Positions 55,506 through 60,696 of a stretch of DNA of 64,000 nt are shown here, in pieces; position 1 is the first letter of the stretch; each line of letters starts with the position of its first letter. This DNA comes from Escherichia coli (GTDB lineage: Bacteria; Pseudomonadota; Gammaproteobacteria; Enterobacterales; Enterobacteriaceae): NCBI RefSeq assembly GCF_003334405.1, contig NZ_QOWM01000009.1; one strand, 5' to 3'. The position numbers and the translations under genes are program-made. The notes beneath the pieces were generated by a model. The model did not search any database. It saw only the letters and a list, made by a program, of their open reading frames with translations, and was not told the origin of the DNA.

Positions 55506-56879
55506 TTAATGGTTGGAGAACCAGTTCAGTTTATCGCGCAGGCCAACAACCCGACCAATAATAATTAGCGATGGACTGTTCATTTGCTGCGCCAGTTCTC
55601 CCAGCTGTGTGAGCGTACCGTCAATCACGCGCTGCGTGACTGCCGTACCGTTTTCGACAATTGCCACCGGCATTTCGCCTGGCATTCCGTGTTCAATCAG
55701 CTTTTGCTGAATAGTCGCGGCCTGATTCAACCCCATATAGAACACCAGCGTCTGTTTTTCTGCCGCCAGGTTTTCCCAGTCCAGCTCGCCACCGGTTTTT
55801 AAGTGTCCGGTAATTAAGCGTACGCTCTGGGCATAATCGCGATGCGTGAGTGGAATACCCGAATAGGCAGAGCAACCAGAAGCTGCGGTAATACCCGGAA
55901 CCACCGAGAACGGAATACCCGCGTTGCACAGTGTTTCCAGCTCTTCGCCACCACGGCCAAAAATAAACGGATCGCCACCTTTCAGCCGCACCACGCGTTT
56001 GCCTTTTTGCGCTTCCCGCAGCAGGATCTGGTTAATCTCTTCCTGGGGTACGCAGTGGTATCCCGCGCGTTTGCCGACGAAAACACGGTCCGCATCGCGG
56101 CGTACCAGATTCATAATATCGTCAGAAACCAGACGGTCGTAGACCACCACATCTGCCTGCTGAATTTGTTGCAGTCCTTTCAGTGTCAGCAGCCCGGCAT
56201 CGCCCGGACCTGCACCAACCAGCACCACTTCACCGCGATGGTCGAGCGGTTCGTTGATTAACTGTTCGGTCGTTTCAGTAATGGCTTTCTGATCGTTGTT
56301 TGCCAGCGACTGCGCCAGGCGGTCGTTAACGAACAATTTCTCCCAGAAACGGCGACGCTCACCCATCGTGGCGAACTGTTGTTTCACTCGCCCGCGTAAT
56401 TGCCCGGCGTATTTCGCTACCTGGCCCAGATGTAACGGCAGCAGTGATTCAAGTTTTTCGCGCAACAGGCGTGCCAGAACCGGAGAGGTGCCGCCAGAGG
56501 AGACCGCTACCATGAGCGGTGAGCGGTCAATAATCGACGGCATAATAAAGCTGGCGGCTTTCGGCGCATCGACCACGTTACAGAAGATGCGACGAGCTTC
56601 AGCGGCTTCGCTGACGCGCTGGTTAAGCGCGTCATCATCCGTCGCTGCAATCGCCAGCCAGCAGGTGTCGAGAAGGCTTTCATCAAATGGCCCTTCGACG
56701 AGGGTTAACATGCCTGCATCTGCCCATGCGGTGAACTGTGGAATAAACGCTAATGCATTCACCGTTAAGCGAGCGCCTGCGTCTAACAGCAACCTTGCTT
56801 TGCGTTCCGCGACATCACCACCGCCGACAATCAGACAGTCGCGATCGCGTAATTGGCAAAATATAGGCAAATGATCCAC
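55506..56879 (-). CDS. cysG: Siroheme synthase (multifunctional)
   Basis: 457-aa ORF: N-terminal NAD-binding glycine-rich segment ([12 protein letters not shown]) and C-terminal uroporphyrinogen-III methyltransferase signatures ([27 protein letters not shown]). Confidence 0.96.
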
Positions 56880-56897: not shown

Positions 56898-57704
56898 TTA
56901 ACCGGCAGCCGTTTCAGTTTGATTAAATTTGTCCGCAACCGGACGATTCGCTTTCGGCGTAGCATACCAATAACCCAATCCCATGAATACGGCACCTGAT
57001 AAAGTATTACCCAGCGTCACCCACAGCAGGTTATGACCAATACCCGCCAGCGTGTAGGCTTCGCTGTGGTTGCCGAACCAGGAGAGCGCGAACAGCGTCA
57101 TGTTAGCGATAGAGTGCTCGTAGCCGGACGCGATAAATGCCAGCAGACACCACCAGATAGCGATAAATTTCGCCGCCCCTTCAGTGCGCAGCGCCATCCA
57201 GATTGCCAGGCAAACCAGCCAGTTACACAATGCACCTTTGAAGAAGAGTACCATTGCCGGTGCAGTGGTTTTAGCCAGCGCGACGGAGTGAACGATGCTG
57301 GTATCTACCGGCAGCAGGCTACCGCCGCCCCAGCTATAGAGCATGGCAACGAAGACGGAACCGACCAGGTTACCCAGCCAGGTTTGCGGCAGGATTGCCC
57401 ACATTTGCCCGTGGCTGATGCTGCCCGCTTTTACCCCAAAGGTGAGGAACATGGTGTGTCCGGTGAACAGTTCAGAACCGGCGATAATCACCAGCGTTAA
57501 GGCGATACCAAAGGTCGCGCCCATCACCAAAGGGCGTACGGATGGATCGAGCAAATTACCGAGCGTGAAAATCAGGATGATCCCAAGACCCACATACGCG
57601 CCCGCCATGGCGGAGCTGACCCAAAAGCCGAGCGGGTTATTTGCCGACAGGCGTGCAATGCGCGCAGCGTTAGCCGCACACTTATTAATAGTGTCTGTAA
57701 ACAT
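56898..57704 (-). CDS. nirC: Nitrite transporter NirC (formate/nitrite transporter family)
   Basis: 268-aa hydrophobic ORF directly upstream of cysG on the same strand. Confidence 0.95.
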   Translation of the reverse strand: MFTDTINKCAANAARIARLSANNPLGFWVSSAMAGAYVGLGIILIFTLGNLLDPSVRPLVMGATFGIALTLVIIAGSELFTGHTMFLTFGVKAGSISHGQMWAILPQTWLGNLVGSVFVAMLYSWGGGSLLPVDTSIVHSVALAKTTAPAMVLFFKGALCNWLVCLAIWMALRTEGAAKFIAIWWCLLAFIASGYEHSIANMTLFALSWFGNHSEAYTLAGIGHNLLWVTLGNTLSGAVFMGLGYWYATPKANRPVADKFNQTETAAG

Positions 57705-57829
57705 TTGATTATCCTTTAAAAAATAAAAACAAAAAATAAAACAAAAAGTTTAAAAAATGTCCTGCAATATACCGAAGATTATTACAGGACCATGCAAAAA
57801 GGGGAGGCATTGCGCCTCCCGTTAAAACA

Positions 57830-58156
57830 TTAACCGCGCAGCTGCACCACGCCGTCTTTCACTCGCGCTTCGTAATGTTTGACGGAAAACTGTTCGTCTT
57901 CCATGCACAAGCCGTCGCTTAAGCGAAAACGCTGTTTTTTCAGCGGGCTGGCGACCCACAGCTCGCCCTGGTGTTCCGCAATCAGTCCGCGTGACAGCAC
58001 GCTGGACTCGAAGAACGGGTCGATGTTGCTGATCGCAAACACCTGATCGCTGTGATACGGGCGGAAAATCGCGACCTGCTCGTCACCTAACAGCGCGCAG
58101 ACGCCGGTTTCAGGCAGGATGTCATCGATTTTGCAGATGTCTTTCCACTGGCTCAT
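57830..58156 (-). CDS. nirD: Nitrite reductase (NADH) small subunit
   Basis: 108-aa Rieske-like ORF; start overlaps the nirB stop by 4 nt (ATGA). Confidence 0.95.
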   Translation of the reverse strand: MSQWKDICKIDDILPETGVCALLGDEQVAIFRPYHSDQVFAISNIDPFFESSVLSRGLIAEHQGELWVASPLKKQRFRLSDGLCMEDEQFSVKHYEARVKDGVVQLRG

Positions 58157-60696
58157 GCGTTGTCCTCCACCAGAGTTACTGGGATACGTTCATACGGCGT
58201 TGCCGGACGGTGCTGTTCGCGCTCTGGCACCATCTGCACGTTCGGGTCACGCTTGTCGCTGTTGATGAAGTGTTTGAAGCGAGTCTGCGCAGACGGCGTA
58301 TTGACCGTTTCAGTCCACTCACACAGTACCGCTTCACGCAGGCGCGCCATCTCTTCTTCCAGATGTGCGTTCAGCCCCAGTTTGTCGTCAATGATCACTG
58401 CTTTCAGGTAATCGATGCCGCCTTCGAGGTTTTCTAACCACGGTGCGGTACGCGTCAGTTTGTCGGCAGTACGGATGTAGAACATCATGAAGCGGTCGAG
58501 ATATTTGATCAGCGTTTCGCGATCGATATCCGCCGCCAGCAGATCCGCATGACGCGGTTTCATGCCGCCGTTACCGCAAACATACAGGTTCCAGCCTTTT
58601 TCAGTGGCGATAATACCCACGTCTTTACCCTGAGCTTCTGAACATTCACGGGTACAGCCGGAGACACCGAACTTCATTTTGTGCGGCGTACGGATGCCTT
58701 TGTAGCGGTTTTCCAGTTCCACGCCGAGGCCGACGCTGTCGCCAACGCCGTAGCGGCACCAGGTGCTACCCACGCAGGTTTTCGCCATACGCAGTGCTTT
58801 CGCATAGGCATGACCGGTTTCGAAGCCGGCTTCAATCAGCTGACGCCAGATCTCCGGCAGATCGTCTTTCTGTGCGCCAAACATCGCCAGACGCTGGGAG
58901 CCAGTGATCTTGGTGTAGAGATTAAATTCACGCGCGATACGACCTACCGCCATCAGCCCTTCCGGGGTGATTTCACCGCCCGGAGAACGCGGGATCACCG
59001 AGTAGGTGCCGTCTTTCTGGATGTTAGCGAGGAAGTTGTCGTTAGAATCCTGCAGCGGAGTATGTTCCGGCTTCAGAATGTATTCGTTCCAGCAGGAGGC
59101 CAGCAGCGAACCGACGGTTGGTTTACAAACTTCACAACCGTAGCCTTTGCCGTGTTTCGCCAGCAGTTCTTCGAAGGTTTTAATGCCTTCAACGCGGATC
59201 AAATGGAACAGTTCCTGACGCGAATAAGCAAAGTGTTCGCACAGGTTGTTGTTAACTTCGATGCCCTGTTTCGCCAGTTCCGCGTTCAGTACCTGAGTGA
59301 CCAGCGGGATACAGCCACCGCAGCCAGTACCCGCTTTGGTTTCAGCTTTCAGCGCCGCAACTGTGTGGCAGCCTTTGTTGATGGCAGCAATCAGATCACC
59401 TTTGGTGACGTCGAAGCAGGAGCAGATTTGCGCGCTGTCCGGCAGTTTATCAACACCGATAGACGGCTTGCCGCTACCCGAGTGTGCTGGCAGGATCAGG
59501 GAATCCGGGTTTTCCGGCAGTTCGATAGCGTTCAGCACCAGTTGCAGCAGGTTACCGTAGTCGCTGGTATCGCCCACCAGTACCGCACCGAGCAGGGTTT
59601 TGTTGTCTTCGCTGACAATCAGGCGTTTGTAGATCTCTTTACTTTCGTCGAGGTAAACGTAGCTACGTGCGCCAGGCGTGCGACCGTGCGCATCACCAAT
59701 ACCGCCTACGTCTACGCCCAGCAGTTTCAGCTTGGCGCTAAGGTCAGCACCTTCAAAGGCGTTTTCGCTACCGAGAATATGGTCAACGGCGACCTGCGCC
59801 ATTTTGTAGCCAGGTGCTACCAGACCAAATACACGGTTGTTCCAGCTTGCGCATTCACCGATGGCGTAGATATCCGGATCGGAAGTCTGGCAGGAATCAT
59901 TAATGACAATACCCCCACGCGGAGCAACGTCCAGACCACACTGGGTTGCCAGCTTATCGCGCGGACGGATACCGGTAGAGAAGACGATAAAGTCGACTTC
60001 CAGTTCGCTGCCGTCGGCAAAACGCATGGTTTTACGCGCTTCAACACCTTCCTGCACAATCTCAAGGGTGTTTTTGCTGGTGTGAACGCGCACGCCCATA
60101 CTTTCGATTTTGCGACGCAGCTGCTCGCCGCCCATCTGATCAAGCTGTTCTGCCATCAGCATAGGGGCAAATTCGATAACGTGGGTTTCAATACCTAAGT
60201 TTTTCAGCGCGCCTGCGGCTTCCAGACCTAACAGGCCGCCACCAACAACGGCACCGCGTTTGCTGCGACGGGCGCAGGATTCAATGGCGTTGAGGTCTTC
60301 AATAGTGCGATAGACAAAGCAGTCCTGAGTATCAGAACCTTTGATTGGCGGGATCCACGGGTAGGAACCGGTTGCCATGATCAGCTTGTCATAAAAAACG
60401 GTACGTCCGGCGCTGGAGTGAATCACCTTCTCCTGACGGTTGATGGTGATAGCGCGTTCGCCGACCAGAACTTTGATGCCGTGTTTCTCGTAGAAGCCTT
60501 CGCGCACCAGCGACAGCTCTTCGGCGGTGTGGTGAGAGAAGTAAGACGAGAGGTGTACGCGGTCATAAGCGATGCGCGGTTCTTCACAGAAAACGGTAAT
60601 ATCAAAGTTGGCCGCATCAGATTTATCAAGAAGATCTTCGATAAAGCGATGGCCGACCATACCGTTACCGATAATTGCGAGTCTGACTTTGCTCAT
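58153..60696 (-). CDS. nirB: Nitrite reductase (NADH) large subunit
   Basis: 847-aa ORF with N-terminal FAD/NAD dinucleotide-binding GxGxxG (IIGNGMVG), Cys clusters for Fe-S, and the sulfite/nitrite reductase siroheme domain. Confidence 0.97.
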   Translation of the reverse strand: MSKVRLAIIGNGMVGHRFIEDLLDKSDAANFDITVFCEEPRIAYDRVHLSSYFSHHTAEELSLVREGFYEKHGIKVLVGERAITINRQEKVIHSSAGRTVFYDKLIMATGSYPWIPPIKGSDTQDCFVYRTIEDLNAIESCARRSKRGAVVGGGLLGLEAAGALKNLGIETHVIEFAPMLMAEQLDQMGGEQLRRKIESMGVRVHTSKNTLEIVQEGVEARKTMRFADGSELEVDFIVFSTGIRPRDKLATQCGLDVAPRGGIVINDSCQTSDPDIYAIGECASWNNRVFGLVAPGYKMAQVAVDHILGSENAFEGADLSAKLKLLGVDVGGIGDAHGRTPGARSYVYLDESKEIYKRLIVSEDNKTLLGAVLVGDTSDYGNLLQLVLNAIELPENPDSLILPAHSGSGKPSIGVDKLPDSAQICSCFDVTKGDLIAAINKGCHTVAALKAETKAGTGCGGCIPLVTQVLNAELAKQGIEVNNNLCEHFAYSRQELFHLIRVEGIKTFEELLAKHGKGYGCEVCKPTVGSLLASCWNEYILKPEHTPLQDSNDNFLANIQKDGTYSVIPRSPGGEITPEGLMAVGRIAREFNLYTKITGSQRLAMFGAQKDDLPEIWRQLIEAGFETGHAYAKALRMAKTCVGSTWCRYGVGDSVGLGVELENRYKGIRTPHKMKFGVSGCTRECSEAQGKDVGIIATEKGWNLYVCGNGGMKPRHADLLAADIDRETLIKYLDRFMMFYIRTADKLTRTAPWLENLEGGIDYLKAVIIDDKLGLNAHLEEEMARLREAVLCEWTETVNTPSAQTRFKHFINSDKRDPNVQMVPEREQHRPATPYERIPVTLVEDNA

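Follow-up and report, generated by a model that had tools for sequence, protein, structure and literature searches.

Known intercistronic control elements

The closest described relative of the element considered here is located in the nir operon of Salmonella. Northern blots of this operon revealed a weak 5.4-kb full-length transcript and stronger species of 2.8 kb (nirBD), 2.5 kb (nirC-cysG), and 1.4 kb (cysG) (Wang et al. 2020, PMC7038943). [quoted passage not shown] Upon inactivation of RNase E, the nirC-cysG RNA is lost and the full-length RNA accumulates (PMC7038943). Deletion of the stem-loop together with the U tract decreases nirBD and increases nirC-cysG, and it reduces the repression of a nirDC reporter by the sRNA NarS from ~30-fold to ~5-fold (PMC7038943). 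These deletion data are consistent with termination; they do not separate termination from stabilisation.

Two further types of intercistronic element are relevant. In the rpsU-dnaG-rpoD operon, the rpsU-dnaG spacer harbors a leaky internal intrinsic terminator that sets the cistron ratio, and the malE-malF pair represents an intercistronic junction stabilised by a REP or a stem-loop. A further stem-loop-stabilised junction, that of iscR-iscSUA with RyhB, is discussed in PMC7038943.

Organisation of the E. coli nirD-nirC spacer

The window, i.e. the whole stretch of E. coli DNA analysed, is 64,000 nucleotides long and carries the nirB-nirD-nirC-cysG operon on its minus strand. Since the nirD TAA occupies 57832-57830 and the nirC ATG 57704-57702, the gap between the two genes is exactly 57705-57829, in agreement with the 125-bp gap assigned by the first-pass annotation of this DNA. 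The features of the locus are as follows, in sense order:

58153-60696, minus strand: nirB
57830-58156, minus strand: nirD
57830-57832, minus strand: nirD stop codon TAA, 9 nt upstream of the hairpin 1 stem
57802-57820, minus strand: hairpin 1, GGGAGGC-GCAAU-GCCUCCC, a 7-bp GC-rich stem with a 5-nt loop (folding, terminator scan, covariation)
57709-57810, minus strand: 33-codon ORF, presumably the historical 'nirE', product MPPLFAWSCNNLRYIAGHFLNFLFYFLFLFFKG, with its ATG in the hairpin 1 loop and its stop overlapping the nirC ribosome-binding site (translation)
57795-57801, minus strand: U tail of hairpin 1, CUUUUUG (read from the sequence, terminator scan)
57759-57790, minus strand: hairpin 2, an AU-rich imperfect stem, GUCCUGUAAUAAU-CUUCGG-UAUAUUGCAGGAC as RNA and GTCCTGTAATAAT-CTTCGG-TATATTGCAGGAC as DNA (folding, distribution)
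57718-57758, minus strand: U-rich tract, 32 U in 41 nt (T-richness ranking)
57718-57747, minus strand: imperfect tandem repeat in the U tract, sense unit GUUUUUAUUUUUU, 12-13 nt, 2.4 copies (TRF)
57703-57717, minus strand: nirC translation-initiation region, target AAAGGAUAAUCAAAU of the sRNA NarS (exact complement of narS)
57712-57716, minus strand: Shine-Dalgarno sequence AAGGA
57702-57704, minus strand: nirC ATG
56898-57704, minus strand: nirC
57676, minus strand: peak of a Rho-dependent termination region published for K-12 (MG1655 3,497,031(+)), 29 nt into nirC (Adams et al. 2021)
55506-56879, minus strand: cysG

From 5' to 3', the sense strand reads: nirD TAA, 9 nt, hairpin 1, CUUUUUG, 4 nt, hairpin 2, the U tract, AAAGGAUAAUCAA, and the nirC AUG. 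Every base of the 125-nt spacer is the same in MG1655 (3,496,878-3,497,002), and a 501-nt query spanning the gap has a match, annotated as nirD and nirC, in every one of the 5426 complete E. coli genomes. Three matches to window 57500-58000 lie on E. coli records labelled as plasmids; these replicons may have been mis-assigned, or plasmids may carry large pieces of the chromosome.

The calculation of folding energies, proposed as a check by the first-pass annotation, speaks for a structured spacer. A 146-nt stretch folds at -40.6 kcal/mol, as compared to -25.3 +/- 3.8 kcal/mol for its shuffles (z = -4.08). Each hairpin is likewise more stable than its shuffles, with z = -4.09 for hairpin 1 alone and z = -3.65 for hairpin 2 (-13.5 to -14.9 kcal/mol), and in all three cases none of 200 shuffles was as good. 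The three sequence strings quoted in that annotation are all present in the order given, while both hairpins had been misplaced: hairpin 1 was put at 57798-57816, 4 nt below its real site at 57820-57802, and hairpin 2 at 57749-57780, 10 nt below its real site at 57790-57759. The T-rich run, put at 57717-57747, was about right, as the TRF repeat covers 57717/57718-57747 and the whole tract 57758-57718.

The Salmonella terminator (PMC7038943) resembles the E. coli element in its operon and in its position, a few nucleotides past the nirD stop. The stem GGGAGGC/GCCUCCC of hairpin 1 is identical in both, and the loop reads GCAAC in Salmonella and GCAAU in E. coli. Both species also possess the U tail, U5 in E. 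coli against U6 in Salmonella, a downstream U-rich region, and a NarS target block over the nirC ribosome-binding site. Hairpin 2, in contrast, is Escherichia-specific and is an extra feature of E. coli relative to Salmonella. The E. coli spacer is compact (125 nt), whereas that of the studied Salmonella strain is longer, its NarS site being ~200 nt away from the U tract (PMC7038943). From a comparison with the spacers of Citrobacter and others, we infer that this strain carries an ERIC-type insertion in its spacer. The functional tests all come from Salmonella.

The mal and isc junctions share with the scheme put forward for nirD-nirC an intercistronic stem-loop that shields the upstream message from 3' exonucleases, the removal of the downstream part by an sRNA or a nuclease, and, as an outcome, discoordinate expression within a single operon. 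Hairpins 1 and 2 are not REP elements, and hairpin 1 carries a U tail, so that termination is also possible, unlike at REP junctions. As in the rpsU-dnaG spacer, a hairpin and a U tract between cistrons would lower the expression of the distal genes without uncoupling them fully; what sets the nir spacer apart is that RNase E processing, an sRNA target site, and a Rho-dependent component accompany its terminator. SroE (Rfam RF00371), from the spacer of another E. coli operon, displays a similar two-hairpin layout, in which the first stem is GGGA-GC-rich and a U run comes after the second. The likeness is one of layout only, as the spacer scores 22 bits against a gathering threshold of 51 and is not a member of the sroE family. 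The rimP leader of Rfam, for which both strands were searched, is rejected as well (18 bits against 47).

Hairpin 1 as a probable intrinsic terminator

Six of the seven base pairs of hairpin 1 are G-C, and its energy amounts to -13.6 kcal/mol alone and -14.7 kcal/mol with its flanks. The tail that follows the stem, CUUUUUGC, contains 5 U among its first 8 nt. Hairpin 1 thereby exhibits two characteristics of an intrinsic terminator, a stable GC-rich stem-loop on the transcribed strand and a U-rich tract directly 3' of it, and the terminator scan flags it together with its U tail. Hairpin 1 and its own short U tail form a self-contained terminator-like unit, separate from the long U tract. The first-pass annotation overlooked this tail, and its terminator layout has to be redrawn: the unit consists of hairpin 1 and its own U5, and not of two hairpins followed by the long U tract.

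The nirD-nirC spacers of 77 Enterobacterales genomes range from 30 to 432 nt in length. A homolog of hairpin 1 is found in 47 of them, and in all 47 its stem begins 3-10 nt past the nirD stop. At least 5 T are present among the first 8 nt after the stem in 37 of these 47 homologs, and fewer in the other 10. In the lineages with such a poor U tail, hairpin 1 may be mainly a stability element and not a terminator. The copy of S. enterica subsp. diarizonae, GGGAGGCGCAACGCCUCCCCUUUUUUG, has the E. coli stem unchanged and a single loop substitution.

Covariation was analysed in a gapless 39-column alignment of 38 sequences, each from one genome. Paired cells account for 90.9% of this alignment and four pairs display double changes. 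The covariation score is 0.378, as compared to 0.217 for shuffled alignments (0/500 as good) and to at most 0.15 for slid registers. Compensatory changes are found for pair 8-26, which is GC in 21 sequences and CG in 11, and for pair 11-23, which is AU in 21 and GC in 15. G-U pairs are frequent, and their frequency points to selection on the sense RNA. Position, alignable sequence, and a conserved structure with compensatory changes all identify hairpin 1 as the ortholog of the Salmonella nirD terminator.

The loop GCAAU/GCAAC (window 57809-57813; columns 15-19 of alignment A2) is more conserved between genera than the stem or the 5' flank. Such conservation is not usual in the loop of a simple terminator, and hints at a further constraint, e.g. 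a contact with a protein or an RNA.

Where hairpin 1 is missing, most genera have a different stable hairpin, or a palindromic repeat, downstream of nirD. The presence of different stem-loops at the same place suggests that a stem-loop at the post-nirD position is selected for. In three Serratia species, the gap is only 30 nt long.

The nirD-nirC gap is a hotspot for the insertion of repeats. REP/BIME-like units occur in the gap of many Citrobacter, and ERIC-like units in that of C. amalonaticus, C. youngae, Phytobacter, and Pseudescherichia. The gaps of Cedecea, Buttiauxella, and Superficieibacter harbor CCCTCACCC..CCCTCTCCC..GGGAGAGGG palindromes, some of them in tandem arrays, with spacers of up to 432 nt. 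In these other genera, the inserts (REP/BIME-like, ERIC-like, or of the CCCTCTCCC type) lie downstream of the terminator hairpin and upstream of the nirC ribosome-binding site.

The U-rich tract and hairpin 2

On neither strand of the 64-kb window does any other 41-mer contain as many T as the tract at 57718-57758, the runner-up having 24 out of 41. A high T content ahead of the nirC ribosome-binding site is a conserved trait: over the 70 spacers that were not flagged by the ERIC search pattern, the median is 55% T. By analogy with Salmonella, given the 5' RACE, RNase E, and U-tract-deletion data obtained there, the U tract is probably a single-stranded zone of RNase E entry or cleavage; it is also a candidate binding site for Hfq or S1. 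A role in sequestering the nirC ribosome-binding site was considered and rejected, the weak predicted pairing not going beyond that of shuffles (z = -1.52).

The length of the tract varies between strains. Natural E. coli spacers of 113, 114, 120, and 125 nt were read directly, and match lengths imply further variants 1-2 nt longer. The spacers of strains 1002W03 (120 nt), B25FEP (114 nt), and AH20I049 (113 nt) have deletions inside the U-rich repeat. In strain 1002W03, nirC is a frameshifted pseudogene.

Hairpin 2 is followed by AUUUUUU at 57758-57752. Each of the 5426 complete E. coli genomes carries it at the nir locus, and the median number of places per genome is one. Its sense RNA is more stable than its antisense RNA (-14.9 against -9.7). 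In E. coli variants, substitutions fall mainly at the apex, and the hairpin still folds, with energies of -10.9 to -18.6 kcal/mol. A second allele, whose loop is unrelated, is carried by E. albertii, one Escherichia sp., and one genome labelled E. coli. It retains the base of the stem, with one pair changed on both sides (G-C to A-U) and another changed from U-G to C-G, and is followed by CUUAUUUAG. At 95% identity or more, this albertii-type allele was found in none of the 5426 complete E. coli genomes. The genome labelled E. coli that carries it is that of SCPM-O-B-8794 (NZ_JAATUR010000004.1), which suggests a cryptic-clade or mislabelled Escherichia.

Hairpin 2 was not found in the other genera examined, and the terminator scan did not flag it. 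Its compensatory support amounts to one or two independent substitution events. Its role may be that of a back-up terminator or of a stabiliser, or it may have none. An assignment to the REP/BIME elements is rejected, as hairpin 2 does not occur in multiple dispersed copies in the 5426 genomes. The idea of a REP relic is not supported either: of nine Citrobacter inserts aligned locally with hairpin 2 (z = -0.8 to 2.6), a single one reached p ~0.02. Both the Escherichia-specific hairpin 2 and the strain-variable length of the U-tract repeat appear undescribed in the literature consulted.

It may be asked whether hairpin 2 and the U-tract repeat have any role, i.e. whether they represent a decayed REP-like insertion and a slippage-prone simple sequence, leaving hairpin 1 and the NarS site as the only parts that matter. 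The restriction of hairpin 2 to Escherichia, with unrelated inserts or nothing at its place in other genera, fits this explanation, as do the insertion hotspot, the free variation of the U tract in E. coli (spacers of 113 to at least 125 nt), and the small number of covariation events in hairpin 2. It is harder to reconcile with a stable fold that persists in 5426 of 5426 E. coli genomes despite apical substitutions, with an albertii-type allele that keeps the base of the stem through a compensatory G-C to A-U change while its loop is wholly different, with the lack of significant similarity to the Citrobacter REP inserts, and with the single place that hairpin 2 typically occupies in a genome. 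On balance, an absence of function for these two parts is possible and somewhat unlikely.

The nirC start region and NarS

The 15 nt at 57717-57703 are an exact complement of MG1655 narS (b4813), retrieved by an exact-complement search at position 144 of this gene, where narS contains AUUUGAUUAUCCUUU. Complementarity to the NarS seed extends across the nirC ribosome-binding site, and the AAGGATAATCAA block of the initiation region is kept across genera. In Salmonella, the NarS-nirC duplex and its footprint span -12 to +1 of nirC, and seed mutants have been tested (PMC7038943). RIL-seq support for NarS-nirC pairing in E. coli is cited in the same paper (PMC7038943), and the interaction is already recorded for E. 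coli.

E. coli narS itself (L091:538-721, MG1655) contains an ERIC-like segment, CACCCCAGTCACTTACTTTAGTAAGCTCCTGGGATTC, presumably the '170-nt insertion' of Wang et al. The kind of element found in E. coli narS also invades the nirD-nirC spacer of other genera.

Transcript coverage in K-12

Published DirectRNA-seq data of K-12 document a steep fall in coverage at this junction. Without bicyclomycin (BCM), 586 reads were counted upstream and 24 downstream, and with this Rho inhibitor 920 upstream and 149 downstream, in 800-nt windows, with a Rho score of 3.95 and p = 6e-12 (Adams et al., eLife 2021, supplementary file 2). The conversion of MG1655 coordinates to those of the window rests on the identity of the spacer. 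Coverage thus drops 24-fold, and 6-fold when Rho is inhibited, so that about 6-fold of the drop is Rho-independent. This fits an intrinsic terminator or a stability barrier combined with a Rho component, and could also reflect differential RNA stability instead of termination. Between 3,496,800 and 3,497,099, the Term-seq tables of Adams et al. 2021, from aerobic K-12 cultures, contain no 3' end, although the nir operon is poorly expressed under these conditions, and the TERMITe supplements have no nirD or nirC entry.

The same data set reports an antisense Rho-termination region at MG1655 3,496,855(-), corresponding to 57852 on the plus strand of the window, with coverage values of 262 and 12 across it without BCM and of 405 and 66 with BCM (Adams et al. 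2021). The sole promoter-like site found by the scan thereabouts, TTGCCA-17-CACAAT at 57203-57231 on the plus strand, lies inside nirC, upstream of the antisense region. An antisense RNA seems to start inside nirC, to run through the spacer, and to end just past hairpin 1.

Proposed mechanism and alternatives

We consider it probable that the spacer serves the nirB-nirD-nirC-cysG transcript as a composite RNA control region that works at the level of the sense (minus-strand) RNA. Located 9 nt past the nirD stop, hairpin 1 and its U5 tail would be a leaky intrinsic terminator that ends some of the transcripts, and would also cap the nirBD RNA with an exonuclease-resistant 3' stem-loop. Termination and capping together would yield more, and more stable, nirBD than nirC-cysG message. 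RNase E would cleave read-through transcripts within the U-rich, single-stranded segment, and the resulting nirC-cysG fragment would be the main target of the Hfq-dependent NarS. By pairing with its target over the nirC ribosome-binding site and start codon, NarS would repress nirC alone. The Escherichia hairpin 2 with its U6, located between the terminator and the U tract, would most likely act as a back-up terminator or a stabilising stem, and a Rho-dependent component just inside nirC would add polarity. The terminator, RNase E, and NarS steps have been shown in Salmonella and are transferred here by orthology, the Rho step is taken from the published K-12 data, and the hairpin 2 step is our own suggestion.

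The spacer may instead be a tunable, translation-sensitive attenuator rather than a fixed leaky terminator. As the stem begins 3-10 nt past the nirD stop in all 47 homologs, a ribosome terminating on nirD would mask its 5' arm and favor read-through. Hairpin 2 and U6 would then provide a further terminator in tandem, or would cap the processed nirC-cysG RNA at its 5' end, and the copy number of the 12-13-nt repeat (spacers of 113 to at least 125 nt) would alter the access of RNase E or Hfq, leading to strain-specific NirC levels. We regard such an attenuator as unlikely.

A further alternative deprives the hairpins of any terminating activity: they would be RNA stability elements only, barriers that protect nirBD from exonucleases after RNase E cleavage in the manner of REPs, and the U tract would mainly be an S1 translation enhancer for nirC. 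The 10 homologs of hairpin 1 without a good U tail can be read this way, and so can the REP/BIME palindromes in the same gap of many Citrobacter and the other palindromic repeats that take the place of hairpin 1 in Cedecea and Buttiauxella. T-richness adjoins the nirC ribosome-binding site regardless of what lies upstream, and the E. coli spacer has no Term-seq 3' end listed in the aerobic tables. Against this stand the fit of hairpin 1 and CUUUUUG to the intrinsic-terminator pattern, the retention of the U tail in 37 of the 47 homologs, and the 6-fold coverage drop that remains with Rho inhibited. The increase of nirC-cysG in the Salmonella deletion is moreover expected from more read-through (PMC7038943). 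As for the U tract, ERIC-type inserts place it ~150 nt away from the ribosome-binding site, and an enhancer acting through S1 would require the two to be adjacent. Stability and enhancement as the sole functions are decidedly unlikely.

A promoter for nirC-cysG inside the AT-rich tract is highly improbable: AT-rich DNA does lie directly upstream of nirC and a separate nirC-cysG RNA exists in Salmonella, but the sigma-70 scan yields no promoter-like site on the minus strand of the spacer, and the Salmonella nirC 5' ends, being monophosphorylated and RNase E dependent (PMC7038943), are processed ends and not primary starts.

The probability that the spacer encodes a small hydrophobic protein is negligible: the 33 codons are open, a GGAGG motif precedes their ATG by 4 nt, and five ORFs were at one time ascribed to the E. 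coli nir operon, to go by the title of Harborne et al. 1992, but the frame varies from 6 to 45 codons in natural Escherichia variants through frameshifting indels and substitutions, 14 of the 37 loops matching the search pattern read AAC and thus offer no ATG, hairpin 1 encloses both the start codon and GGAGG, a phenylalanine/leucine composition is the default yield of a U tract, and RefSeq has no annotation there. The 33-codon frame, not conserved among relatives, is a chance ORF and not a gene, and no 'nirE' was found in open-access text.

Significance of the spacer

The feature is real, and the model of a mid-operon terminator and processing site is already published for Salmonella. The suggestion of the first-pass annotation that a terminator or attenuator sets the ratio of nirBD to nirC-cysG has been demonstrated for the Salmonella ortholog by deletion and Northern blots, and its alternative, an RNA processing site, by the monophosphorylated 5' ends and their RNase E dependence (PMC7038943). 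The present analysis adds a modest amount: many enterobacterial genera share the terminator hairpin, whose stem exhibits compensatory changes; E. coli possesses an extra, lineage-specific hairpin and a length-polymorphic U-tract repeat; and the gap is an insertion hotspot elsewhere. These additions are small refinements and not surprising, and are useful for annotation and for the transfer of the Salmonella model to E. coli. For the biology of the operon, the element explains how NirBD (nitrite reductase), NirC (nitrite channel), and CysG (siroheme synthase) are made in unequal amounts from one promoter. It also explains how NarS silences the nitrite importer alone during nitrate respiration, by which nitrite toxicity is limited.
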